63,470 nt of DNA, filler included, from 7 parts of 7 records of this genome joined end to end with filler, not necessarily neighbours in it; one strand, 5' to 3'; positions 6,311-23,333 are shown, counted from the whole stretch's first letter. The notes: generated by a model from the sequence alone, not told the origin. Program-made: numbers and translations.

Positions 6311-7060
6311 TTAAATCAACGATATACCACCATCAGCGTGCAGATTCACACCGTTAATGAAGCTGCTCGAGCTAGAAGCAAGAAACAGTGCGGCCCGCGC
6401 TAGTTCATCAGCCTCACCAAATCGTCCCACCGGTATCATGTCTCGCATTATTTCCTCGAAATGCGGCCTGTCGCCTTCAGAAATACCAAGCTTGGCTAGT
6501 ATGGAAGTGTCGACCGGCCCCGGGCTTAAAATGTTAACCCGTATTTTCCGGGCTTTTAGTTCCAATACCCAATTGCGAGCAAAAGCGTTAATTGCAGCTT
6601 TCGTTCCAGCGTAAACAGCATGATTTTCTAGTACTTTGGTTGCCGCCAGAGAACTAATCAGGATAATACATCCCCCTTCTCGCATGAGGGGTAGCAGTGT
6701 CTGAACGCCAAAGAAGGTACCACGTGTATTCACTGCAAACTGACGATCATAGTCTGTCATCGTAACTTTTTCAGACGGCGACAGATGAATAACGCCGGCG
6801 TTGGCGACGTATATATCAAGCCCGCCAAATCTGTCTCTGATTTCAGTAGCCAGTTTTTTATGATGTTCAAGATCAGAGACATCGCCCTTTATACCGATTA
6901 CGCCGTAGCCAATCTCCACAACGGCATTATCAAGAACGTCCTTCCTGCGACCTGTAATGATCACCCGAGCTCCTTCTTGCGCAAACAGCCGTGCTGTCGC
7001 CTTGCCGATACCGCTATTTCCGCCGGTAACTACCGCGATTTGTCCTTTCAACGATTGCAT
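6311..7060 (-). CDS. Short-chain dehydrogenase/reductase
   Basis: TGGNSGIG, NAG and YAGTK motifs. Confidence 0.92.
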   Translation of the reverse strand: MQSLKGQIAVVTGGNSGIGKATARLFAQEGARVIITGRRKDVLDNAVVEIGYGVIGIKGDVSDLEHHKKLATEIRDRFGGLDIYVANAGVIHLSPSEKVTMTDYDRQFAVNTRGTFFGVQTLLPLMREGGCIILISSLAATKVLENHAVYAGTKAAINAFARNWVLELKARKIRVNILSPGPVDTSILAKLGISEGDRPHFEEIMRDMIPVGRFGEADELARAALFLASSSSSFINGVNLHADGGISLI

Positions 7061-7189
7061 AAGTCGATGCCTCCAGTTTTACTGCTTGACGATTTGATGG
7101 TTTCGTTCGTTCCGCACATTCCCGAAGCGGTGAAGCAAATGTGTTTGATGGCATGACTCGCAAATGCTAAGCCATGCCTCTTCATCATG

Positions 7190-8161
7190 CTAACCGGAAA
7201 TAAAAGTAAACAGATCTCGATTGATTACATCCGGATGCGTTGCGCACATTCCATGAGGGAACCTCTTGTATGTTTTAAGTGTCGCATTCTTGAGAAGTTT
7301 TGCGGCCAATGGGGCGGAATCGGCATATGGGACAATCTGGTCATCATCACCATGCATGACTAATGTCGGGACGTCTACGGACGTAAGATCTTCCGTGAAA
7401 TCTGTCTCAGAAAACGCCTTTATGCAGTCATAGTGCGCTTTTGCACTGCCGGCCATACCTTGGCTCCACCAGTTCTGGATCAACCCTTGAATAGGGGTAA
7501 TTCCGGAACGGTTAAATCCGTAGAATGGTCCAGATGCAAAGTCGAGGTAGAACTGTGAGCGGTTCGCGGCGAGCGCAGTCCTGATTCCGTCGAATACTTC
7601 AATCGGAAGGCCGCCGGGATTATCAGGTGTTTTCAGCATGATAGGCGTAACCGAACCAATAAGGACCAGTTTTGACACTCGGCCAGACTTCGATCTTGCC
7701 ACGTAATGAGCTGCTTCTCCGCCACCGGTTGAATGTCCGATATGGATCGCATTTTTGAGATCGAGTTCATCAACCAATGCCGCTACATCTGCTGCATAGG
7801 TATCCATCTCATTTCCTTCATCGGTCTGCGAAGACCGCCCGTGACCCCGACGGTCGTGAGCGATCACCCGATACCCTTTGGCGAGAAAATAGAGCAGTTG
7901 ATTGTCCCACTCGTCCGCTGTAAGTGGCCATCCGTGATGGAAGACGAGAGGTTGTCCATTTCGAGGACCCCAATCCTTGTAAAATATACTGACGCCATCT
8001 TTTGTTGTAATGAAATTTGTCATCTTTTGTCCTTTCAATTTTGGGGGCCGCAAAGCAGATTGCGGCTGAAACGCTTCCGCACATGAAGTTAGAAGGATCG
8101 CGCAAACGCTAGCAGACAGGAATTCGCGACGATCAAGGCTTAAAAAGTTTTTTTTAGCCAT
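7190..8161 (-). CDS. Non-heme chloroperoxidase-like alpha/beta hydrolase with Tat/lipoprotein-like leader (alternative start at 8023)
   Basis: Paralog of 328-1170 (HHGWPL, GHSTGG). Leader has DRREFL and LLTSC. Confidence 0.88.
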
Positions 8162-8207
8162 ATTTATTCCTCGGCATGGATTTATTGGGCGTAGTAATTT
8201 TTAGAGA

Positions 8208-9419
8208 CTAAAAATTTACGACTGAGCTTGGGTTAGCATAAGCAAGAGCCACTTTTCGGTCGGCTTTGGGAGGGTAAATCCATATGGTATTGACTTCCTG
8301 CTTTATCGTTTTGGCATCCGCGCCCATCGCTTCAACTTTTCGATCCCAACCCCGTGTAAAGAGGGCTCCGGGTTCCCCAAGATCGAGGCAGGTGACATAG
8401 GTCCGCTGGTGATAGGGCTCCGGTTCAACATTCAGTAAACTCGCGGCGGCATTATTTCCTGCAAAAGCACCCATTCGCTTTGCGTGCTGACATGACATCA
8501 GGGTATGATTTCCAAGGTCATCGGTTGGTGCTTTCGCCGCATCTCCCGTGACATAGACATTAGCTACTCCGGGAACTGCCAAATTTGAATCCACTATCAA
8601 GCGGCCCAGATTGTCATGTTCCGCGCCAATGAATCGGGTCAGTGGTGTTGCGCGCATCCCGGCGGACCAGATGACTGTCGATGCCTCGATCCTCTTGCCA
8701 TCTGACAGAGTTACGCCGTCGACGTCGACGCCCGTGATTCCTGTGCCTGTAAGCGTCGTTATTCCAAGTTGGTCGAGCGCTTGCATGATATGCGGGCGCG
8801 CTTCATCACCCATATCCGATGCAATGTTCGGTGAACGGTCGACCAAGATCACCTGTATTTTCTCATCTTGACCAAAAATTTTGCGAAGGCGCGACGGCAA
8901 CTCAGTCGCAACTTCAATTCCCGTAAACCCGCCGCCTGCGACAACAATTGTGCTGCGTTTTACGCTCGCCGGACGCTTGACGAGACTGTGCAAATGATTG
9001 TCGAGGGAAACGGCATCAGAAACGTTATCTACACTAAACGTATGTTCATCGACGCCAGCAATTGGAGGGCGAAACAAACTACTGCCTGCAGCTAGGATCA
9101 AACGATCGTAGCTCATTTTCCGTTCGTCCTTACCCTGGTTTTCAAAGGTAATTGTTTGATCCTCGGTATCTATCGCGTTGACTGTTCCTTGAATAAAGTT
9201 CACATCAATGACGCTGAAAAGGTCCAGAAGCGGAACTACCATTTTTTCAGGGTTTGGTTCGTAGAGTCTCGGACGAACCGTCAGCACTGGATTGGGAGCA
9301 ATTACAGTAATTTCGAGATCACTGCTCGAGACTTTTTGAATGTCACGGAGCCGGGCGGCAGAGAGAGCGGCATCGGTGGCAGCAAAACCAGCGCCAATAA
9401 TCAATATACGTTTAGTCAT
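8208..9419 (-). CDS. NAD(P)/FAD-dependent oxidoreductase, NDH-2-like
   Basis: IIGAGFA and GGGFTGIE dinucleotide-binding motifs, GD motif; start ATG 9419 with SD GGAAGGA. Confidence 0.9.
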   Translation of the reverse strand: MTKRILIIGAGFAATDAALSAARLRDIQKVSSSDLEITVIAPNPVLTVRPRLYEPNPEKMVVPLLDLFSVIDVNFIQGTVNAIDTEDQTITFENQGKDERKMSYDRLILAAGSSLFRPPIAGVDEHTFSVDNVSDAVSLDNHLHSLVKRPASVKRSTIVVAGGGFTGIEVATELPSRLRKIFGQDEKIQVILVDRSPNIASDMGDEARPHIMQALDQLGITTLTGTGITGVDVDGVTLSDGKRIEASTVIWSAGMRATPLTRFIGAEHDNLGRLIVDSNLAVPGVANVYVTGDAAKAPTDDLGNHTLMSCQHAKRMGAFAGNNAAASLLNVEPEPYHQRTYVTCLDLGEPGALFTRGWDRKVEAMGADAKTIKQEVNTIWIYPPKADRKVALAYANPSSVVNF

Positions 9420-13874: not shown

Positions 13875-13974
13875 NNNNNNNNNNNNNNNNNNNNNNNNNN
13901 NNNNNNNNNNNNNNNNNNTTAATTAATTAANNNNNNNNNNNNNNNNNNNNNNNNNNNNNNNNNNNNNNNNNNNN
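13875..13974. other. Artificial contig spacer
   Basis: N44-TTAATTAATTAA-N44 (stops in all six frames). Confidence 0.99.
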
Positions 13975-13980
13975 CCTTTC

Positions 13981-14122
13981 CCTTCGACTGCGCTCAGGGA
14001 CCGAATTTAAGTTTAAAGTCTAGGGAGAGGGAGGGAATGCGGCACCGCCGCATTCCCTCCCTCTCCCTTTAAGCCAAAATTGACCGGAGGCTGAGCGCCG
14101 GTTGGTGAGCTCGTCGAACCAA
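13981..14122. repeat. Bacteroidota REP-like palindromic cluster enclosing a perfect 22-bp hairpin
   Basis: CTTCGACTGCGCTCAG at 13982 and an inverted, interrupted CTGAGCGC..GTCGAAC at 14091-14119. Perfect inverted repeat 14022-14043/14047-14068. Confidence 0.6.
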
Positions 14123-14469
14123 GTCCCTGATTGAACATACGTGCAGGTGTCCGAATACACATTTTATTTTTTGTGGACAATTTGCTTCGCCTGACGAGAT
14201 AATACTTTCCAAATCCCTTTTTAATATTCCATATGCATCAGATTATTTGGTGTTTATGGTTTTTTGTGCCCAATAAATTTTAATTTGTAAGGAGTTTTCG
14301 GATTGGCGTCACTGGCATTTAAGGCTAGAATGTTAATTGATTTTTGATAATTCGGAGATGATTTTTTCTCATCTCACTCTTAAAAATCGGGCAAAATCTC
14401 AAGCTAAAAGCGTACGTAGTCCTTCATCTTTGAAAGGATATTTTACTATTAACCTAATAATTTTTACCT

Positions 14470-17400
14470 ATGGCTACTTTGAAAATAATGCTGAAAGGAC
14501 AGGATCATTCTTCTTACCTCACTGGAGATGATCGGGGATTTGAATTGTACCAACTGGACCAAGCATACACGGTGGAAAGTCCCACCAGAGGGGATATTCC
14601 TGAGCAAATTCTCGAAATAGATGATAACAAGATAGTTGAGTTTGAATTTGAAGATAACACCGTCTGGATGGCGGATAATGAATCCTTAACCACACTTTTT
14701 CAGCAGAAAATCAAACGTTCCGCAGACGGAGATGAACTCTATCTGCCAGATGAATTAGAATCTAATGAACAGGACAGGGGTATAATCAAAAAGATCGGTA
14801 TTAAGCTGGTGAAGGTCTTTGTGAAAAAGAACATCATCAAGCCCAAAATGCTGGAAATGGCGATAAACCTTGAAAATAAGCAGTTGGCTTTTACTGGTGA
14901 AAATTTTAAAAAAGTGGATTATGGAGTTTTGGCGGCCTGTTCGCCAGAAATAGAATTGAGTACACTGGAACTTGACGAGGCCACTGGGGAAGCAAAATTG
15001 GAAGTAAGAAGTAGGTATTTACTCTTGTTGCACGGAACAGCTTCTTCTACTGTAAGTTCCTTTGGGGATTTGAAAGATTCTGAGGAGTGGAAGACCTTGA
15101 TTAAAGGCTACGGCAATAATCATTTGCTTGCCTTCCAGCATAGATCCTTGACTGCAAGTCCATTGGAAAACATTCTGCAGCTTGTGCAAAATCTTCCATC
15201 TGGAATTGAGTTGGATCTTTTAAGTCATTCGCGAGGAGGATTACTGGCTGATTTGTTGGCTAGATTTTCAACTAGCCCCGCAGGTTTTGATTCCACGGAG
15301 AGGGCACTTTTCAGTACAAATGAAAGAACCCGAGATCTAGATGTGATCCAAAAGATTCATGAAATTCTAAAAAACAAAAAGATCAAAGTTAAATCCATGG
15401 TGCGGGTGGCATGTCCAGCCAACGGCACCACATTAGCTTCAAATCGACTGAATATCTTCTTGAACGTCACTTTCAATCTGGTGGGACTGGCAGTAGGGCA
15501 AGTAGGAAATCCCATTTTCGTTGCCTTCAAGGAGTTCCTTATGGAGGCGGTGGCCTGTAAGGATGATGTGGATGTTTTGCCTGGATTAGAAGCTATGAAT
15601 CCACAATCTCCTTTCATCAAAGCGATGAATTACCAGGCTTCAGAGATTGAAATAGACTTTCCTTTATATGTAGTGGGAGGTAGTGGCGAATTGAGCCTAA
15701 GCTTTAAGACACTCGTGGTAATTCTGGGTAAATTCTTCTTTATGAAGAAAAATGACTTGGTGGTAGACACCGAAAGCATGAAGTGGGGTTCGAGAAGAGT
15801 TTCAGGAAAAGTGTACGTCTTTATAGAGAAAAGTGGGGACATAAATCATTTTAAATACTTCTGTACTCCGAATACCTTAAAAGCTTTGATTTCTGGTTTG
15901 TCGGCGGTCAACGATGTGTTTGAATTGAAACTGGCGGATAAAGAAAGAGGAATAGCTGGAATAGAGTCTGGTGCATATAAAAGTGATAAGGTATCTGGAA
16001 ACAGACCTATAGCTGTCTTGATTCCCGGTATCATGGGCTCAAATATCGGCGAGAAAGATGATTTGCTATGGATCAATTATTGGAGATTTATCAAAGGGGA
16101 ATTGAAGGGTTTAGCCTATGACCCATCTATGCCCAGTAAGCTATCACCTCATTCTTTGATCAAAACTTCCTATGGAAATCTTGGAGATAAATTAGCCAGC
16201 AGTTACGATATAGTCACTTTTCAATTTGATTGGAGAATTCCACTGAAAGAGAGCGCTGCACTTTTTGATAAAAAAATAAAAGAACTTCTGATTCATAATC
16301 AACCTGTCAAAATCGTAGCCCATAGTATGGGAGGGGTTTTGGTTAGGGACTTTATGGTATATCATAAGGCTACTTGGCAAAAACTCAATAATTCCATTGG
16401 ATTTCGAGCGGTATTTTTAGGCTCACCATTAGGCGGTTCCTATCGTATTCCTTATGTACTTTTCGGCAAGGATAGCTTGATCAAATTACTTGGAAAAATA
16501 GATATCAAGCATTCTACCAAGGAACTGATAGCCGTGTTCTGCAATTTCCCTGGGATTCTTAATCTCTTACCGATTAGTAAGGAAGCTAGACACGATTTCT
16601 CTGATAGGAAATTATGGGAAAGAATGCGAGGGGCGTCTGGAGATGACTCTTGGCCTATACCTTCTCAACGAGTTCTTGATGAATTCGGCGCTCACCAAAA
16701 TGAAGTTTTGAAGGTGATAGATACTATAGACTACTCCAACATCACCTACATCGCTGGACAAAGTGGGAAGAAGAATTTTACCGTATCAAATTTAGGTATT
16801 GAGGATGGGGAGTTGGTATTCTATGCTACCAATTCCGGGGATGAGAGTGTCACTTGGGCTTCAGGAATTCCAAAAGATATCCATGACAAAAAGCAAGTTT
16901 ACTATGCTAATGTCACGCATGGAGGATTATCCAAGGAAAAGAATCTGTTTGCAGGCATAGAAGATTTGCTGATCTATGGTAGTACAAAAAGGCTCCAAAA
17001 TAGCCTTCCAAAATCAAGAGGAGAGGAGCGGGAGTTTGCTCCAACAGAAACTGAGATTTTTGACATCTCTGAAGAGAAAGTAATAAACACCATTTTGGGT
17101 GTGGGAGAGGTAGAGGAAAAATGGCATGAAGAGAAACCTATGCTGGTTTCGGTAAGTCACGGTGATTTGAAATACGCCAAATATCCAGTGCTTGCCGGAC
17201 ATTTTCAATACGATGCTATTCTCACTACTGAAATCGCGATTGACCGTCAGTTGGATGGTGAGCTGACCAGACTTCATGGCTTAGGTTTATATCCAGGACC
17301 GATTGGTACAAATCAAATTGTCCTAAACGAAGATTTGACCAAAAGATCATTCAAAGGTGGGGTGATTGTAGGGTTAGGGGTTCCTGGGGAACTTTCTTCT

Positions 17401-19821
17401 TTTGCCCTAATGAATTCCATAGAGAAGGGAGTTGCTAGATACTTGACTATCAAGAAAGAAGAGGAAAATAGAACTTCGATGGATGAAGGTAGCAGTCCTG
17501 CTATTAATGGTATTTCTGTTATAGCTATTGCAAATGCCTATGGGGGACTTTCTACTGAGAGTTCTATTCGTGCGATTATTTTAGGTATTCAGCGAGCAAA
17601 TCAAAGCATAGATAGAGTTTACAAAGGGGAGATCAAAGGGATTGAAGAAGTGGAAATTATTGAGATTTTCAATGATAAGGCGCTTTCAATCCTGAAAACT
17701 ATCCAGCGCTTAGAAGTAGATGACAGTAAGGAGTTTAATATAGTATTCAATGAGAAGGGACTGAACTACACCTTAGGCAAACGCTGGAGAATACCATATG
17801 ACTATGCTAATGACTGGTGGACACGAGTGAGCGTATGCCATGAATTGAAATTAAAAGAGACGGATGAGTTTGAGGATTCGATACGTATGTCCATCGCATC
17901 AAATGGTGCTAGCGAGAAGGTAGAATATATGCCGGCACATGATAAAACGCTTGAGGTGTTACTGAAGAGGATGACATTGGAAAACCAATATTCACCTGAA
18001 ATAGCAAAAACCATGTTTGAGCTATTGATACCGTATCAGTTCAAGGAGGAAGTGAAGCGCCTTAACAATGTTTCTTGGATATTGGATGTAGCCTCAGCGG
18101 AATATCCTTGGGAAATGATCCAAGAAGATGTAGATGCGGTACCGCTCTGTGTTCATACTGGGATGGTTCGACAGCTAGCTTCCATGCAATTCCGAGAAAA
18201 AATAGCACGGGTAAATGCCAAAACAGCATTGGTAGTAGGTGATCCCATGCTTGATAAGTTTATGCCACAACTTCCTGGTGCTTTGCGCGAAGCAGAAACT
18301 GTGGTAAGTATTCTCAAGAAAAATGATTACGAGATACAAAGCTTAATAAGCAGTTCTGCAACGGAGATTATACTCAAGCTTTTCTCCAGAAATCATAAAA
18401 TCATACACTTAGCTGGTCATGGCGTATACCGATATGGACCAAACCGCTCTACAGGTATGGTTATTGGCAATGATACTTTTTTATCACCAAGCCAGATAGC
18501 AGGGATGAGTTCTTCAGCTGAGTTAGTTTTTGTGAATTGCTGTTACCTCGGATTGATAGATAGGAAAGCAGAGGAGGGAAGTCTATATAGGAATAAGTTT
18601 GCGGCTAATATTGGAACACAACTTATTTACAATGGCGCTAGGGCAGTGATCGTAGCAGGATGGGCTGTGGACGATGCTGCTGCTCTGAAGTTTTCCCAAT
18701 TGTTTTATAGTAATATGTTCGATGGGTTGGCATTTGGTGAATCCGTCAAGCGGGCTAGAAAGAAGATTTACGAAGAGTTTGGGCATAGAACCAATACTTG
18801 GGGAGCTTTTCAGTGCTATGGAGATCCTTTTTATAAACTGACTGAAGACGGTTCGGGACGAGGTAACGAGGATGACTTATTGGTCAGCGAGGAAGTGGAG
18901 ATTGAGTTTCAGAATACATTGGAATCCATGGGTGCCAATAATTATAATCATGAGTACATCCTGACTCGGATTAATTTGGTTTTGGAAAAGATGAAAAACA
19001 GAAATATGCTCACTGATAAAATACAGGAGCTATCTGCTGGAATCTATGCTGGATTGCAGGAATATGAGAAATCATGCGACTGCTTTGAGAAACTCATGAA
19101 ATCCAAAAAATCAGAATTTACTATTAAGGGATTTGAGAAATACTGTAATATTCAAGCCAAACTTTCCCTTCAAAAATTTGCTGCTAAGACAATTGACTTG
19201 AAAGAAGCAGTGAAAATAATAGACAAAGTAATCACTGATCTGGAGGGGCTTGGGAATCATTTTGGAGCAAGTGCGGAAAGATGGTCTTTGATCGGAAGTG
19301 CGTACAAACGCAAAATGCATCTGCTCAAAGGCTCATCACAAAAAGATGTGATGGAAGCACTCGTTCAGTCGATCAACGCCTATAAGGAAGCCAGCATTTC
19401 TTCAGAAAATAAAGATGCATATCCATTGACCAATTGGTTGACACTTGCACGAATTCAGGGTTTACTACAAGGCAAAGACAGCATTCGATTAATTGATTTG
19501 GAAGCGAGGAAGGCTATGCAGAAAATTTATGACGAAATAAATGAAGACACTAAAAGGAAAGATGACTTCTGGGCGATGTCTAATTATTCCAATATTATGC
19601 TAACTCAGTTTATGTTGGGTACTAGCAAGCCCAAGGATGGGGAAATTGCACATCAATACTTGAAATTATGGGATTTGGCTGGTAATAAGGGACAAAAAGT
19701 AGCAGAATTGGAGCACTTTGAAATATTAGGTGTCTTACTGGAGAATATCAAAATTGAGGGCTTTTCTTCCGTCAAGGACGGACTAACTAAAATCCAAAAA
19801 GCTCTTGAAGAAGCTCTTTAA
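14470..19821 (+). CDS. Multidomain protein: two lipase-like alpha/beta hydrolase domains + CHAT (caspase/separase-like) protease + C-terminal helical/TPR-like region
   Basis: LHGTASS/SHSRGG (S254), PGIMGS/AHSMGG (S619), YPWEM, IHLAGHG (H1317), FVNCC (C1358), TWGAFQCYGDP. Confidence 0.85.
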   Translation: MATLKIMLKGQDHSSYLTGDDRGFELYQLDQAYTVESPTRGDIPEQILEIDDNKIVEFEFEDNTVWMADNESLTTLFQQKIKRSADGDELYLPDELESNEQDRGIIKKIGIKLVKVFVKKNIIKPKMLEMAINLENKQLAFTGENFKKVDYGVLAACSPEIELSTLELDEATGEAKLEVRSRYLLLLHGTASSTVSSFGDLKDSEEWKTLIKGYGNNHLLAFQHRSLTASPLENILQLVQNLPSGIELDLLSHSRGGLLADLLARFSTSPAGFDSTERALFSTNERTRDLDVIQKIHEILKNKKIKVKSMVRVACPANGTTLASNRLNIFLNVTFNLVGLAVGQVGNPIFVAFKEFLMEAVACKDDVDVLPGLEAMNPQSPFIKAMNYQASEIEIDFPLYVVGGSGELSLSFKTLVVILGKFFFMKKNDLVVDTESMKWGSRRVSGKVYVFIEKSGDINHFKYFCTPNTLKALISGLSAVNDVFELKLADKERGIAGIESGAYKSDKVSGNRPIAVLIPGIMGSNIGEKDDLLWINYWRFIKGELKGLAYDPSMPSKLSPHSLIKTSYGNLGDKLASSYDIVTFQFDWRIPLKESAALFDKKIKELLIHNQPVKIVAHSMGGVLVRDFMVYHKATWQKLNNSIGFRAVFLGSPLGGSYRIPYVLFGKDSLIKLLGKIDIKHSTKELIAVFCNFPGILNLLPISKEARHDFSDRKLWERMRGASGDDSWPIPSQRVLDEFGAHQNEVLKVIDTIDYSNITYIAGQSGKKNFTVSNLGIEDGELVFYATNSGDESVTWASGIPKDIHDKKQVYYANVTHGGLSKEKNLFAGIEDLLIYGSTKRLQNSLPKSRGEEREFAPTETEIFDISEEKVINTILGVGEVEEKWHEEKPMLVSVSHGDLKYAKYPVLAGHFQYDAILTTEIAIDRQLDGELTRLHGLGLYPGPIGTNQIVLNEDLTKRSFKGGVIVGLGVPGELSSFALMNSIEKGVARYLTIKKEEENRTSMDEGSSPAINGISVIAIANAYGGLSTESSIRAIILGIQRANQSIDRVYKGEIKGIEEVEIIEIFNDKALSILKTIQRLEVDDSKEFNIVFNEKGLNYTLGKRWRIPYDYANDWWTRVSVCHELKLKETDEFEDSIRMSIASNGASEKVEYMPAHDKTLEVLLKRMTLENQYSPEIAKTMFELLIPYQFKEEVKRLNNVSWILDVASAEYPWEMIQEDVDAVPLCVHTGMVRQLASMQFREKIARVNAKTALVVGDPMLDKFMPQLPGALREAETVVSILKKNDYEIQSLISSSATEIILKLFSRNHKIIHLAGHGVYRYGPNRSTGMVIGNDTFLSPSQIAGMSSSAELVFVNCCYLGLIDRKAEEGSLYRNKFAANIGTQLIYNGARAVIVAGWAVDDAAALKFSQLFYSNMFDGLAFGESVKRARKKIYEEFGHRTNTWGAFQCYGDPFYKLTEDGSGRGNEDDLLVSEEVEIEFQNTLESMGANNYNHEYILTRINLVLEKMKNRNMLTDKIQELSAGIYAGLQEYEKSCDCFEKLMKSKKSEFTIKGFEKYCNIQAKLSLQKFAAKTIDLKEAVKIIDKVITDLEGLGNHFGASAERWSLIGSAYKRKMHLLKGSSQKDVMEALVQSINAYKEASISSENKDAYPLTNWLTLARIQGLLQGKDSIRLIDLEARKAMQKIYDEINEDTKRKDDFWAMSNYSNIMLTQFMLGTSKPKDGEIAHQYLKLWDLAGNKGQKVAELEHFEILGVLLENIKIEGFSSVKDGLTKIQKALEEAL

Positions 19822-19826
19822 CTGGC

Positions 19827-21377
19827 TTAGTTACCAAATACATTTCGGATAGCTTCTAAGTAATCGAACCCGTGTCCTTCGGTAGGCTCTATGTAATTAC
19901 CTTCCAAATACTCGTTCCAGCAGCAGATCATCACTGTGTTTCCGTTGCTGGAACGATAGTTTTTCGACGTTTTCTGAGCCTCTTTAAGCATGGCGGTAAA
20001 AGACCTTTTGTTGCTGTGTACGCGATCTTTTTGAGGTTCACTTGGGATTCCTGTTTGCTGAGGCCAGGTGCCGCCAGCTGGTCTCATATCCCAACCCATT
20101 GCAGTTGGAATTTGATATTCGAAATCAGGATCGTTTTTGAATTTTTCGGACCACATTACCCAATGTCCTTTATAGGTCTCACGCATATCTGCATACGAGA
20201 AATTGCTTTTGTTCATGAAGTTATGATACACATACGCAGTCATGCCTTCGAAACCCATGCTTTTCAAGCGAGGAACATATTCCTGAAGTAATTCACGGTT
20301 TTGATACTCACCACCTTCCCAAGGTCTTTTAGGGTTTTTTGCTTTCCACTCAGTAGGTAATCCATAAGCTCGTTCATTCTCCAGCATGGGTCCTGCAGTC
20401 ACTGCGATGAATTTGATGCCAGGTAAACCTGCTTTTTTGACTGTTTTTTGAGAAAGGTCAAGTAAGTCTTTAAGCGTTAATCCATAATAAGCAGCACGAG
20501 ATTCAGCATCCTGTGGAAAATAAAAATAGACAATAGGACGACCATCTTTTTCCTTCAAATAATCCTCACGAGAGAAATACTCATCTATCCAAAGCTGGGT
20601 GATTTTCTCATGTACTTTGAGGTACAAAGCTTTATCAGGGTTTTCGCCTTCGTAGTTCGCTTTACGGGCTATTTCTTCGGGAGCTCCTACTTTCAGCCAG
20701 AGCATCCAGCGCTCATTACTGTCATCACACCAGTTCAGCGCCCACTTCATTTGCTTTTCCTTTGGAAGACTGGTATTTACCTCAAGCATAACTTTTAGTT
20801 GGTCGCCCCATTCTACCAAACCGGGAACAGCTACTCTTCCATCACGATTTGTGTCTGTTTTCCATCCTTTGGGATAGTAGATTTTGGACTGGGGACCAAA
20901 GTTTAGATGGTAATAATAATGACGTCCATAAAACCAGTTGTAAGCAAAAAAGTCAATACCATAGCTCTTCATGTATTCGAGTTGCTTTTTGATCACCTCC
21001 GGATCATCTCGCTTATAAAATCCCTTCAATTCTTTGATGGGTTTTCTATCTAAATATGGGCCTTCGTAGGGATTTCTGGCATTATAGATTCTACCTTTTG
21101 CACCCCATACACCAGTATTTTGTAAACTCGCACAGTCGCCCTGACCCGTGAGGCATGACCAAAAACTATCGCGATCAACAGCTGGGTTTGGTGAGGTGTT
21201 CCATGATGGCATAAAATATACTCCTACCAATTCCTTCTCCTCCGAATCATCAGCAAGACTGATTTTGGTAGTTTGCACTAATTGTTTTGATTTCGTTTCA
21301 GACTTTTCTTCTGAAAAAAATACCACAAGAGTAACAATGACTACTGAAAAAAAGGAAATGAGAATGGATTTGAGCAT
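19827..21377 (-). CDS. WbsX/GH99-like glycoside hydrolase-fold protein, membrane-anchored or secreted
   Basis: GVYFMPSW, YGIDFFAYNWF, GWD and WNEYLEGNYIEP motifs; N-terminal hydrophobic anchor. Confidence 0.7.
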   Translation of the reverse strand: MLKSILISFFSVVIVTLVVFFSEEKSETKSKQLVQTTKISLADDSEEKELVGVYFMPSWNTSPNPAVDRDSFWSCLTGQGDCASLQNTGVWGAKGRIYNARNPYEGPYLDRKPIKELKGFYKRDDPEVIKKQLEYMKSYGIDFFAYNWFYGRHYYYHLNFGPQSKIYYPKGWKTDTNRDGRVAVPGLVEWGDQLKVMLEVNTSLPKEKQMKWALNWCDDSNERWMLWLKVGAPEEIARKANYEGENPDKALYLKVHEKITQLWIDEYFSREDYLKEKDGRPIVYFYFPQDAESRAAYYGLTLKDLLDLSQKTVKKAGLPGIKFIAVTAGPMLENERAYGLPTEWKAKNPKRPWEGGEYQNRELLQEYVPRLKSMGFEGMTAYVYHNFMNKSNFSYADMRETYKGHWVMWSEKFKNDPDFEYQIPTAMGWDMRPAGGTWPQQTGIPSEPQKDRVHSNKRSFTAMLKEAQKTSKNYRSSNGNTVMICCWNEYLEGNYIEPTEGHGFDYLEAIRNVFGN

Positions 21378-21464
21378 AGTTGCTTTTTCTTAAAAATAAC
21401 TGATTCAATCTTCGTGCTGAAATAATCGATTATCAGTTTTATATCTCAAACCCAATCCGCCAAA

Positions 21465-22004
21465 TCAGGTCAAGCTTTTTCTCAAGATCTGAATGCCACG
21501 ATACTTGGGAAGTAATTTTTTGTAATCTAAGTGATACGTGAAAATCCACTCAAAACCCATTTTTCTGTAGAAGCGCTGAGCCTGAAGCTGAGTGTCCATG
21601 ACTTCTAACCACATGTATTTCAAACCTCGTTCTCTAGCTATGGACTCAACCCTTTTCATAAGTTGGGCCGCCACTCCTTTTCCTTGATATTCCTTGCTGA
21701 TATAAATCCGGTGAAGATGCAGTGAGTTTGGGAAATCAATCAAAGTGGGCGATTCTGGATAGTTGTATTTCAAAATACCGATTTTCCATCCTTCATATAG
21801 CACGTAATAATAGTGGCTTTTTGGATTTTCTAAGTCTTTTTGAAATGCATCGGGATTATACATTTGTTCCAAATACCAATCCCCTGAATCCGACCAAATA
21901 TGCTTGTAGGAAGGAATATAGATTTCCTGCATCAATTCAATTAGCTCTGGTTGATCTGCAACAGTGAGTTTTTGAATACTTAAGTCTTCTGAAAGTTTAA
22001 TCAT
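21465..22004 (-). CDS. GNAT family N-acetyltransferase
   Basis: RIYISKEYQGKGVA and AQRFYRKMGF motifs. Confidence 0.9.
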   Translation of the reverse strand: MIKLSEDLSIQKLTVADQPELIELMQEIYIPSYKHIWSDSGDWYLEQMYNPDAFQKDLENPKSHYYYVLYEGWKIGILKYNYPESPTLIDFPNSLHLHRIYISKEYQGKGVAAQLMKRVESIARERGLKYMWLEVMDTQLQAQRFYRKMGFEWIFTYHLDYKKLLPKYRGIQILRKSLT

Positions 22005-22664
22005 TGAAGTAGGCGAGAGGTTGGCATGTTAGAATGAACATCAATTTTGGGCGCGTAATCTTAGTAAATTCTTATTCAAAGAAATGTATTTAGATGGTCT
22101 TGCCAAAATATAAAGTGAATAGATTTCTAAGGCAAATCAAAAGAAATTGAAAAGTAAAACCACGGCCTGCAATGGAAGCGGTGTTATTATGTAAGGTAAC
22201 TGACTGTTGTAGTTACAAAAAAGTGGCAATGAGATCCACTAAGTTTGTACATAGATTACAATTTTTTCTTTTTAATCTTCTATTACATAATGAACGAAAA
22301 CTCTTGAACGTCAAGCTTAATTTGAACCGTTACTTATTGAAAAGAGGAATTCACTTTCATTTCTATTAAAAATTTTTGCAAAGAGATTAAAATTTTGTCT
22401 TAATTCTTTGGGTGCTAGAAAAGTATTGTGTCAGTATCTCTATTGGGGTTTTTTATTTTTCAAGAGCATTTATTCTCCAAATTTTTATCATGAAAAGCAT
22501 TAAAAATTATTTGTATTACAAAAAAGTGTTTTTTAATAACAATTTTTTTCATTAGTTATGTTGTTAAACGTGAATTGTGATTCTAGTTAAGCCATTGAGG
22601 ACTAGTGTTTTTTAGTTAGTGAGTTTAGTCAACAGCTTGAGTGGGATTTTTTAAAAAATAGCCT

Positions 22665-22815
22665 ATGAAAAATTTATACAAAACTTCGGTTTTAGGGTTG
22701 TTGAGTTTGGTGTTCCTGTTTTTTCTTGGGAATACCTTTGATGTCAATGCCCAAGGCGGTACCGCCACAGTTACCACGGATAAAGATGATTATGCTCCTG
22801 GTGAGTACGTGATCA
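22665..22815 (+). CDS. N-terminus of a secreted (probably large surface) protein, truncated
   Basis: Signal peptide ending VNA-Q, then TVTTDKDDYAPGE; runs into the spacer. Confidence 0.6.
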
Positions 22816-22915
22816 NNNNNNNNNNNNNNNNNNNNNNNNNNNNNNNNNNNNNNNNNNNNTTAATTAATTAANNNNNNNNNNNNNNNNNNNNNNNNNNNNN
22901 NNNNNNNNNNNNNNN
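22816..22915. other. Artificial contig spacer
   Basis: N44-TTAATTAATTAA-N44. Confidence 0.99.
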
Positions 22916-22916
22916 G

Positions 22917-23333
22917 CGCATTGACATGGAAGATCGCGGCGGTCGCATTGAAATGCTTCTGCCTTATGCAACGCTGGAACCGATCCGCGAATTGCTGCTC
23001 CAGATGTTCATGGGTGAGAAATTCGGTCGCGACTCGATTTGGGAAAGCCATCTCGCGACAGAGTTGTGGTCGACCAAAGTGCCTCTCGACGCAGTGCTGG
23101 ACGAACAGAAAATTTCCTTGCGCGAAGTCATGGATTTCAAAGTGGGGCAGACCCTTCTTTTGAACAATGGTCCGGATGCGCTGGTCGATATGCGTTGTGG
23201 CGGTGTCACGCTTGCTCAGGGCCGTATTGGTCGAATGAGCAATAATGTTGCCGTTCGGATCGAGAATGGTGTCAGCCGGAAAAAACGTGCCGCGACGGTC
23301 GCGAGCGTCAAAGCAAATGGAGAAGTGTCATGA
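22917..23333 (+). CDS. fliM: Flagellar motor switch protein FliM, C-terminal part
   Basis: DMEDRGG..LPYATLEPIRELLLQMFMGEKFGRDSIWE followed by a SpoA domain; 5' truncated. Confidence 0.9.
   Translation, partial: RIDMEDRGGRIEMLLPYATLEPIRELLLQMFMGEKFGRDSIWESHLATELWSTKVPLDAVLDEQKISLREVMDFKVGQTLLLNNGPDALVDMRCGGVTLAQGRIGRMSNNVAVRIENGVSRKKRAATVASVKANGEVS

Follow-up and report, generated by a model that had tools for sequence, protein, structure and literature searches.

A single-chain lipase-lipase-CHAT protein of Algoriphagus with four conserved arginines at its domain limits: a putative self-processing conflict effector

Introduction

In the conflict systems studied by Kaur et al. 2020 (PMC7159879), domains of the caspase superfamily are always accompanied by an alpha/beta-hydrolase gene. 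In Lysobacter capsici, the protease LcCaspase cuts LcHydrolase at R73 and R117, both of them R/G sites that are conserved in 161 homologues, and the resulting fragments are toxic (Evans et al. 2025, 10.1101/2025.11.14.688446). ThsE, the caspase-like protease of type IV Thoeris, requires arginine at P1 and prefers small neighbouring residues (Rousset et al., 10.1101/2024.10.24.620036). For the TPR of ThsI, the type VIII Thoeris protein, the report 10.64898/2025.12.03.692087 cites Burroughs & Aravind 2020, and a Thoeris survey lists 'phospholipases and hydrolases', left unnamed, among 29 types of putative effector. Here we describe a gene in a 63,470-nucleotide stretch of DNA, referred to as the window, whose predicted product unites, in one chain, two lipase-like hydrolases with a macro-fold domain and a CHAT protease, and ends in a TPR-S tail.

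LcCaspase/LcHydrolase is the closest precedent, a module of which the protein has the look of a fused version with two lipases. The open reading frame (ORF) is intact, begins at the first ATG past the upstream stop codon and encodes 1,783 amino acids (aa), with a predicted mass of 199.9 kDa:

14470..19821, plus strand: whole gene (ORF; family about 1,700-1,820 aa at full length, 41-92% identical)

Neither a signal peptide nor a transmembrane helix was found in the 1,783-aa protein, whose highest 19-residue Kyte-Doolittle mean is 1.49. The protein is cytoplasmic, and the absence of a signal peptide agrees with a prediction previously made from the DNA sequence (the original prediction). We propose, with a probability of roughly 55%, that it is a single-chain cytoplasmic protease-effector conflict protein in which the CHAT protease cuts after four arginines and releases two lipases.

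Results

Two hydrolases, a protease and a putative sensor share one chain

Domain limits were taken from fold searches and from two AlphaFold2 models built on 40-sequence alignments, one of residues 1-870 (pLDDT, the model's per-residue confidence, 81) and one of residues 851-1783 (pLDDT 73.6). From the N-terminus, a beta-rich domain precedes the DUF7379 hydrolase and the LCAT/LPLA2-type phospholipase; next come the macro-fold domain, the CHAT protease and the TPR-S tail:

14470..14778, plus strand: N-terminal beta-rich pro-region, aa 1-103 (strands of the AlphaFold2 model)
14908..15915, plus strand: hydrolase 1, DUF7379 alpha/beta-hydrolase, aa ~147-482 (Pfam and fold)
16000..16989, plus strand: hydrolase 2, LCAT/lysosomal-PLA2-type phospholipase, aa 511-840 (Pfam and fold)
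17131..17739, plus strand: macro/Peptidase_M17_N-like fold domain, aa ~888-1090 (structure match)
18001..18855, plus strand: CHAT caspase-fold protease, aa 1178-1462 (Pfam and fold)
18883..19818, plus strand: TPR-S helical repeat tail, aa 1472-1783 (Pfam; the most variable part)

The N-terminal region is modelled with strands at residues 4-9, 27-34, 45-50, 54-60, 65-68, 81-84, 87-91 and 95-97 and has a structural extent of about 1-120; Pfam searched with this region alone returned no significant family (best E 0.03, below the cut-off). The first hydrolase matches DUF7379 (PF24096) at 108.6 bits against a cut-off of 33 (5e-31), starting at residue 184, and a fold search of the model places an alpha/beta-hydrolase fold at residues 147-482 (Z 13.9). 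Its triad is S254/D429/H460, and the nucleophile elbow, SHSRGG, is invariant. A literature search on DUF7379 by name returned no paper. Two hydrophobic helical segments of low model confidence (residues 327-345 and 401-419, within nucleotides ~15448-15726) interrupt the DUF7379 match and could form a lid or a membrane-binding hairpin.

The second hydrolase matches LCAT (PF02450) over residues 581-710 at 34.9 bits against a cut-off of 21 (1.3e-8), with PGIMGS at 519-524 and a triad of S619 (in AHSMGG), D791 and H817. Its closest folds are LPLA2 (4x97, Z 26.1, root-mean-square deviation (rmsd) 3.3 over 300 aligned residues), LCAT (Z 23.1) and the phospholipase effector Tle4 (Z 21.2), at sequence identities of 14-19%. 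The presence of two intact lipase-like domains had been predicted from S254, S619 and PGIMGS, all of which proved to be invariant in 121 of 121 aligned family members.

The middle region, which the original prediction had left uncharacterised, has a macro or leucyl-aminopeptidase-N fold by structure. Residues ~888-1090 match macroH2A1.1 (Z 15.8, rmsd 3.0, 168 of 186 residues), with the N-domain of leucyl-aminopeptidase (LAP) tied at Z 15.7, and a protein-atlas lead pointed to Peptidase_M17_N clusters (score 0.89). Pfam's macro and M17_N families gave no match at E values up to 10, nor did Pfam return a real family for the middle region by itself; the putative macro-fold assignment is based purely on structure.

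The protease matches CHAT (PF12770, clan CD) over residues 1178-1452 at 100.5 bits against a cut-off of 24 (1.5e-28), and its predicted dyad is intact, with H1317 (nucleotides 18418-18420) and C1358 (18541-18543) both invariant in 121/121. The core, residues 1241-1462, is closest in fold to SAVED-CHAT (8tl0, Z 18.5, rmsd 2.6, 182 residues aligned), followed by DdvA (Z 16.8), gingipain R (RgpB, 15.8), MALT1 (15.3) and caspase-7 (15.1). The invariant D1401/D1402 in 'GWAVDD' might be the arginine-binding acid of the S1 pocket, an argument that we did not use as support. The helical tail, earlier described as TPR-like, is more precisely TPR-S (PF20308; residues 1531-1660, 52.7 bits against a cut-off of 27.6, 7e-14; 56.2 bits with the tail alone), and its fold matches the central regulatory TPR region of ASK1 (Z 21.6). 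Beyond these assignments, a profile search of Protein Data Bank sequences gave only LCAT/LPLA2 and weak TPR matches, and NCBIfam gave nothing except HetF (NF045509) far below threshold, at 19.9 bits where the cut-off is 1,200.

Conservation was followed from the 121-sequence family alignment to a divergent set at 31-47% identity, in which 120 of 148 new representatives (1,600-2,000 aa) were retained and 28 dropped, and to a distant clade from metagenome contigs at 25-27% identity, whose members are about 1,830-1,950 aa long and have the same Pfam order. S254, D429, H460, S619, D791, H817, H1317 and C1358 are invariant in the family alignment (121/121) and in the 40-sequence alignments. These eight residues are nearly invariant in the 121 divergent and 22 distant sequences, and H1317 and C1358 are kept in 121/121 of the divergent set. 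Since both lipase triads are invariant or nearly so across more than 240 sequences, lipase catalysis appears to be under selection. Column conservation is lowest in the TPR-S tail.

Four arginines are conserved at the domain limits

The original prediction had noted six Arg-Gly dipeptides at apparent domain boundaries. All six are present, and they fall into two groups: R40, R103, R493 and R850 are each arginine in 121/121 members of the family alignment, whereas RG22 is conserved in 3/121 and RG1464 in 9/121. The four conserved positions are taken here as candidate cleavage sites:

14587..14589, plus strand: candidate site 1, R40, motif [T/S]-R-[G/S/A]-[D/E] (conservation; loop between strands)
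14776..14778, plus strand: candidate site 2, R103, motif [D/E]-R-[G/S/N] with an amphipathic strand after it at 108-119 (conservation; pLDDT below 50 at 101-104)
15946..15948, plus strand: candidate site 3, R493, in the linker joining the two hydrolases (conservation; pLDDT below 50 at 488-498)
17017..17019, plus strand: candidate site 4, R850, in the linker that leads from lipase 2 to the macro-fold domain (conservation; loop, pLDDT below 50 at 851-866)

The residue that would follow each cut, P1', is small in 121, 121, 120 and 119 of the 121 sequences at R40, R103, R493 and R850, respectively (G71 S46 A4 at R40; G73 S37 N11 at R103; G90 N30 at R493; G101 S11 A6 at R850), and the columns around the four arginines are variable. 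The protein has 17 invariant arginines, and a small P1' in at least 98% of sequences occurs only at these four and at R255, which lies within the buried SHSRGG nucleophile elbow; at the remaining 12, P1' is small in 0-17 of 121. No conserved R-[small] site was found in the macro-CHAT-TPR-S part of the same alignment.

The pattern extends to distant relatives. Arginine aligns at R40 in 116, at R103 in 117, at R493 in 94 and at R850 in 97 of the 121 sequences of the divergent set, where R40 and R103 rank second and third of 1,783 positions for a conserved residue in a variable context. All four misses at R103 have a shifted R-[G/N]-G, those at R850 are mostly a shifted R/K-[GS], and most of the other misses inspected have R-[G/S/A/N] displaced by a few columns. 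In the 25-27% identity clade, arginine is kept in 22, 21, 21 and 20 of 22 sequences at R40, R103, R493 and R850, with R40 counted with a one-column shift and site 3 scored as R-[GSAN] exactly 12 residues past P[LM]S[WA].

The models and fold searches put the four arginines in loops, at or before the limits of the folded units 147-482, 511-840 and 888-1090: R493 and R850 are exactly between structural domains, R103 is at the end of the N-terminal region and R40 lies inside it. A further claim, that two of the six dipeptides follow the separase pattern (D/E)xxR, fails on conservation of the acidic residue at P4, which is E in 61 and D in 7 of 121 sequences at R103 and D in 13 of 121 at R493. At R850, P4 is proline in 119 of 121. 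At R40 it is serine in the query, and the six commonest P4 residues there include no acidic one.

A putative route from trigger to membrane damage

Under the proposed reading, both lipase-type hydrolases would be held inactive at rest within the 200-kDa chain, probably with a contribution from the acidic N-terminal pro-region. A trigger, for which a phage component or a TIR-made nucleotide signal are candidates, would be sensed by the C-terminal module, by the TPR-S tail and perhaps also by the macro-fold domain. Once triggered, the CHAT protease would become active, probably via oligomerisation, and would then cut after R40, R103, R493 and R850, within or between chains. The predicted products are two acidic pieces, 1-40 and 41-103 (4.6 and 7.4 kDa; computed isoelectric points (pI) 4.9 and 4.05), a basic DUF7379 hydrolase of 43 kDa (pI 8.7), a basic LCAT/LPLA2-type phospholipase of 40 kDa (pI 9.1) and an intact macro-CHAT-TPR-S module of 105 kDa. 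The freed lipases would attack membrane phospholipids, and the cell would be killed or arrested, either as abortive infection or as regulated death of some other form. A complex prediction of macro plus CHAT (880-1470) against the N-terminal region (1-180) scored 0.00 in a run without controls and is uninformative either way. The sensor-protease-effector chain with lipase release, as originally put forward, gains comparative evidence from the four invariant sites and the precedents, and loses two of its sites and the separase pattern.

Several points weigh against this reading. Cleavage at the four arginines is read from their conservation, and an invariant loop arginine could also act as a pseudo-substrate or make regulatory or inter-domain contacts. 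R493 (94/121) and R850 (97/121) align less cleanly in the distant members. LCAT-type enzymes can also be acyltransferases. A literature search returned no experiments on any family member. The neighbours in Algoriphagus are housekeeping genes (tricorn protease, amylase, phosphofructokinase, GNAT) and form no defence island; PADLOC had no matching model, with two sub-threshold Cas-related matches only (E 0.006 and 0.015). Both cuts in LcHydrolase fall within the fold of the hydrolase, which requires its N-terminal piece for activity, whereas the first two sites here are in an N-terminal domain that looks separate.

A large family of full-length proteins

A word-indexed search returned 433 matches, and the 120 listed are 1,702-1,816 aa long, share 41-92% identity, belong for the most part to Algoriphagus and other Bacteroidota, and are named merely 'CHAT domain-containing protein'. 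With residues 1-870 as the query, exhaustive phmmer against a library clustered at 50% identity found 3,216 representatives at E<=1e-3, of which 954 reach E<=1e-30; the best 150 are mostly ~1,750-1,850 aa long. Forms in which the lipases are a separate gene beside the CHAT gene were considered and rejected: there is no evidence for them because the apparent short matches, which belong to the distant clade, were traced in metagenome contigs to contig-end fragments of full-architecture ORFs of about 1,830-2,380 aa. Among the metagenome loci, 30 of 80 were examined, of which 23 have a focal ORF of at least 1,700 aa; one of these 23 was an ORF-calling artefact and was dropped.

Within the genus, the gene is present as a single copy in 62 of 123 genomes. 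One Algoriphagus family member (L047, genome G322) is decayed, in several pieces with multiple in-frame stops. Six loci (L032, L034, L040, L042, L043 and L068) are labelled Limnohabitans or Hydrocarboniphaga (Proteobacteria), yet their gene copies are of Bacteroidota type and some have Algoriphagus-type synteny; these labels are likely binning or labelling errors in metagenome-assembled genomes.

DUF7379 also occurs outside this architecture. In a sample of 301 genomes, it exceeds the cut-off in 11, and three of the six other proteins examined there have it fused to Peptidase_C14 or CHAT. The three are DUF7362-DUF7379-TCAD7-DUF7363-CHAT (L106 6280-10086), S8(subtilase)-Peptidase_C14-...-DUF7379 (L107 7822-13545) and Peptidase_C14-...-DUF7379 (L109 7659-11141). 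By eye, all three show the arrangement of R103, R-G and then an amphipathic strand, immediately before DUF7379.

Genomic neighbourhood and the link to TIR genes

The window consists of at least seven contigs chained by six N...TTAATTAATTAA...N spacers, and gene order across a spacer is uninformative. The two that bound the contig of the gene are:

13876..13974, no strand: artificial spacer (N run, TTAATTAATTAA, N run), the left limit of the gene's contig; the BLAST match begins at 13975
22816..22915 (end coordinate approximate), no strand: artificial spacer, the right contig limit; the BLAST match stops at 22815

The spacers lie at 13876-13974, ~22816-22915, ~28.7 kb, ~36.9 kb, ~49.25 kb and ~59.55 kb. 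G+C content differs among the joined contigs, from ~33% to ~59%, and the set resembles a mixed bin. The gene's own contig, 13975-22815, matches a contig of Algoriphagus aquimarinus by BLAST with 98.9% DNA identity, and its other genes are a WbsX-like glycosyltransferase, a GNAT gene and the cut start of another gene. At 22662-22815 lies the truncated start of a signal-peptide-bearing protein that runs to at least 541 aa in A. aquimarinus, and at 22916-23333 an ORF of FliM/FliN type starts mid-FliM, cut by the spacer. Rrf2, two-component and flagellar genes appear beside the gene in the window but belong to other contigs and are not true neighbours.

The earlier statement that the gene has no co-oriented partner was therefore based in part on false neighbours, but its substance holds in natural loci. 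Across 80 genome loci there is no conserved neighbour: the sole cluster common to all is the gene itself, and the next commonest occurs in 20 of them, each with Algoriphagus-type synteny. Because it has no conserved neighbour in the 80 loci, is single-copy, is found in 62 of 123 genomes and is decayed in one, the gene is a stand-alone accessory gene.

In the likeliest alternative, the protein has the same effector chemistry but serves as the effector arm of a TIR pathway resembling Thoeris instead of as a self-contained sensor. A TIR protein would detect infection and make an ADP-ribose-derived messenger, which would bind the TPR-S or macro-fold domain and activate CHAT, with the TIR gene unlinked in Algoriphagus. 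We consider it somewhat unlikely. It was weighed on 160 related loci (the 80 genome loci and 80 metagenome loci), whose flanks were searched with jackhmmer. A TIR-domain ORF occurs in the flanks of 20 of them (5/80 genome, 15/80 metagenome), against a rough chance expectation of ~1% per locus (16 TIR_2 matches in 26.4 Mb), and all nine of the matches checked pass Pfam TIR_2. In seven loci (L064, L115, L127, L152, L159, L171 and L187), the TIR gene is directly downstream on the same strand. Those at L064 15362-16621, L159 13591-14325 and L187 13454-15307 follow distant relatives and in places overlap the stop codon; the partner domains among direct followers are TIR-OmpA, TIR-TPR and TIR alone.

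Stand-alone TPR-S proteins adjoin the gene in 15 of the 160 loci, SLOG-like proteins in 22 and patatin in 3. The adjacent TPR-S proteins have an N-terminus like SLOG or the CMP-hydrolase, as in ThsI. They are ~455-690 aa long and combine this N-terminus with TPR-S and MAP3K_TRAF_bd in an ASK1-like, ThsI-resembling arrangement (examples: L065 15348-16718; L055 15343-16731; L080 8383-9744; L156 6452-8524). At L080, a patatin-like phospholipase (6511-8364) and then SLOG-like plus TPR-S proteins stand in a row upstream of the CHAT gene, which looks like a small conflict island. Two Bacteroidota loci have SIR2-TIR fusions near the family member (L062 3079-4428 and L071 13160-14545).

Two features of described Thoeris systems favour the TIR pathway: cyclic ADP-ribose (cADPR) activates ThsI with the TPR as presumed receptor, and histidine-ADP-ribose (His-ADPR) is received by macro domains in type II Thoeris (10.64898/2025.12.03.692087). 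TIR genes are also found elsewhere in 5/5 genomes checked. Against it, no TIR was found on contig 13975-22815 or in any Algoriphagus-labelled locus among the 160, and the ThsI-like TPR-S neighbour is absent from 2/2 Algoriphagus genomes searched. Nucleotide binding by TPR-S is only presumed in the literature, and the macro-fold domain lacks a sequence match to the Pfam macro families.

A membrane TIR protein (TIR, one transmembrane helix and an outside domain; L198 1486-2550) occurs in 75 of 123 genus genomes, unlinked to the CHAT gene. By a hand count uncorrected for phylogeny or completeness, it is present in 59 of 62 gene-carrying and 16 of 61 gene-lacking genomes. We did not count this co-occurrence as evidence, because an unrelated control TIR is equally one-sided, with 8/8 occurrences in gene-carrying genomes; the association may be a clade or genome-size effect. 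Because relatives often adjoin TIR signalling genes, the picture of a fully self-contained system may not apply to every member of the family.

The two ideas can be combined in a one-polypeptide death cascade that would answer an unlinked TIR network, with a messenger, its binding by TPR-S or the macro fold, and four ordered R/G cuts; we rate this as rather unlikely. The membrane TIR (59/62 genomes) would be one candidate maker of the messenger. That the cuts would first excise the acidic inhibitory piece and then separate the two phospholipases, destroying the membrane, is similarly doubtful.

Discussion

In a different alternative, CHAT itself is the effector, a promiscuous arginine-specific degrader of cell proteins like ThsE or PCaspase, and the arginine loops are uncut pseudo-substrates or latches that hold it closed. 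We regard this as distinctly unlikely, and give no better standing to its corollary that the lipases are regulated otherwise or serve as membrane anchors. Promiscuous Arg-specific caspase-like effectors are known (10.1101/2024.10.24.620036), a caspase-like protease without an effector partner defends E. coli (Evans et al., 10.1101/2025.11.14.688446), and an inhibitory pseudo-substrate predicts R-[small] conservation equally well. However, the near-invariance of the lipase triads speaks for selection on lipase catalysis, four sites placed precisely at domain limits exceed the needs of a latch, and DUF7379 is repeatedly coupled to caspases, whether separate or fused.

A housekeeping or stress-response enzyme of membrane-lipid remodelling, matured by its built-in protease and neither an immune nor a suicide device, would fit the stable chromosomal position among metabolic genes in Algoriphagus, the single copy, the acyltransferases of the LCAT family and the silence of PADLOC. 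We hold it to be highly improbable: half of the genus genomes (62/123 with the gene) would not share it and one copy is decayed, the sensor tail is the fastest-evolving part, TPR-S, CHAT and DUF7379 are typical of conflict systems, and TIR, SIR2 and patatin genes recur alongside relatives. A lipase toxin that is secreted or injected against competitors, as cargo of the type VI secretion system (T6SS) like Tle4, which the second lipase matches in fold, or as a substrate of the type IX system (T9SS), is almost certainly wrong, as the protein has no signal peptide or Por_Secre_tail domain, no conserved immunity, VgrG, Hcp or PAAR neighbour in 80 loci, and has a sensor of cytoplasmic type fused to it together with a caspase-fold protease.

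A literature search whose scope fell short of Burroughs & Aravind 2020 and of the supplements of two preprints returned no report of this architecture. Burroughs & Aravind 2020 (J Bacteriol 202:e00365-20) may describe TPR-S fusions already.

If the proposed reading is true, a very large family would be the most compact form yet of a logic common to bacterial and animal immunity, in which a death effector is licensed by a protease. One chain would hold the sensor, the caspase-like protease and two enzymes that attack membranes, and its four cut sites would be exactly predictable. The predicted new N-termini (G41, G104, G494 and G851) and fragments (4.6, 7.4, 43, 40 and 105 kDa) make it unusually testable. 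The protein could serve as a model for substrate choice by CHAT proteases, for the inactivity of alpha/beta-hydrolase zymogens and for the ligand of the TPR-S 'sensor', be it a phage protein or a TIR-made nucleotide, and the reading would give a name to thousands of genes now labelled just 'CHAT domain-containing protein'. Should the reading with an unlinked TIR network be true, the protein would represent a new class of Thoeris-like effector, and immune signalling would proceed without operon linkage.

Comparison with known systems

The second lipase shares its fold and triad with LPLA2, LCAT and Tle4, but these are secreted or lumenal stand-alone enzymes, and identity to them is 14-19%. Like separase and Craspase (TPR-CHAT, Csx29), the protein links the CHAT clan to helical repeats. 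Separase cleaves after arginine. Unlike in these proteins, (D/E)xxR is not conserved here, the repeats are C-terminal and of TPR-S type, and there is no CRISPR partner.

ThsI, a CMP-hydrolase fused to TPR, shares with the protein a 'sensor'-type TPR joined to an effector, although TPR-S was assigned from look-alike neighbours and not from ThsI itself, and the ThsI effector is a nucleotide hydrolase without protease or lipase. With SAVED-CHAT/PCaspase of type III-B CRISPR (Steens et al., 10.1101/2023.06.23.546230), the best structural match of the protease domain (8tl0, Z 18.5), the likeness lies in a ligand sensor fused to CHAT, activation by oligomerisation and specific cutting of a downstream zymogen, features that are putative here. 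In that system, unlike here, the sensor SAVED binds cA3, and a second, separate protease takes the place of fused lipases as the substrate.

ThsE of type IV Thoeris also has a caspase fold, and its switch-on by a signal and the ensuing death or arrest are known for ThsE and putative here; some relatives of the gene are, as in type IV Thoeris, directly beside TIR genes. ThsE differs in being a promiscuous effector without lipases that is activated by N7-cADPR from an adjacent TIR, whereas no TIR is adjacent at this locus and specific self-processing is proposed.

The likeness to LcCaspase/LcHydrolase extends to a caspase-fold cysteine protease coupled to a lipase-like alpha/beta-hydrolase (fused in one ORF here), to two conserved N-terminal R-[small] sites that flank a small piece (41-103 here; 74-117 there) and to a latent death effector licensed by proteolysis, which is putative here. 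Unlike in that pair, protease, effector and sensor form one chain here, with a second lipase of LCAT/LPLA2 type, two extra conserved arginines at linkers and a CHAT-type protease joined to a macro-fold domain and TPR-S.

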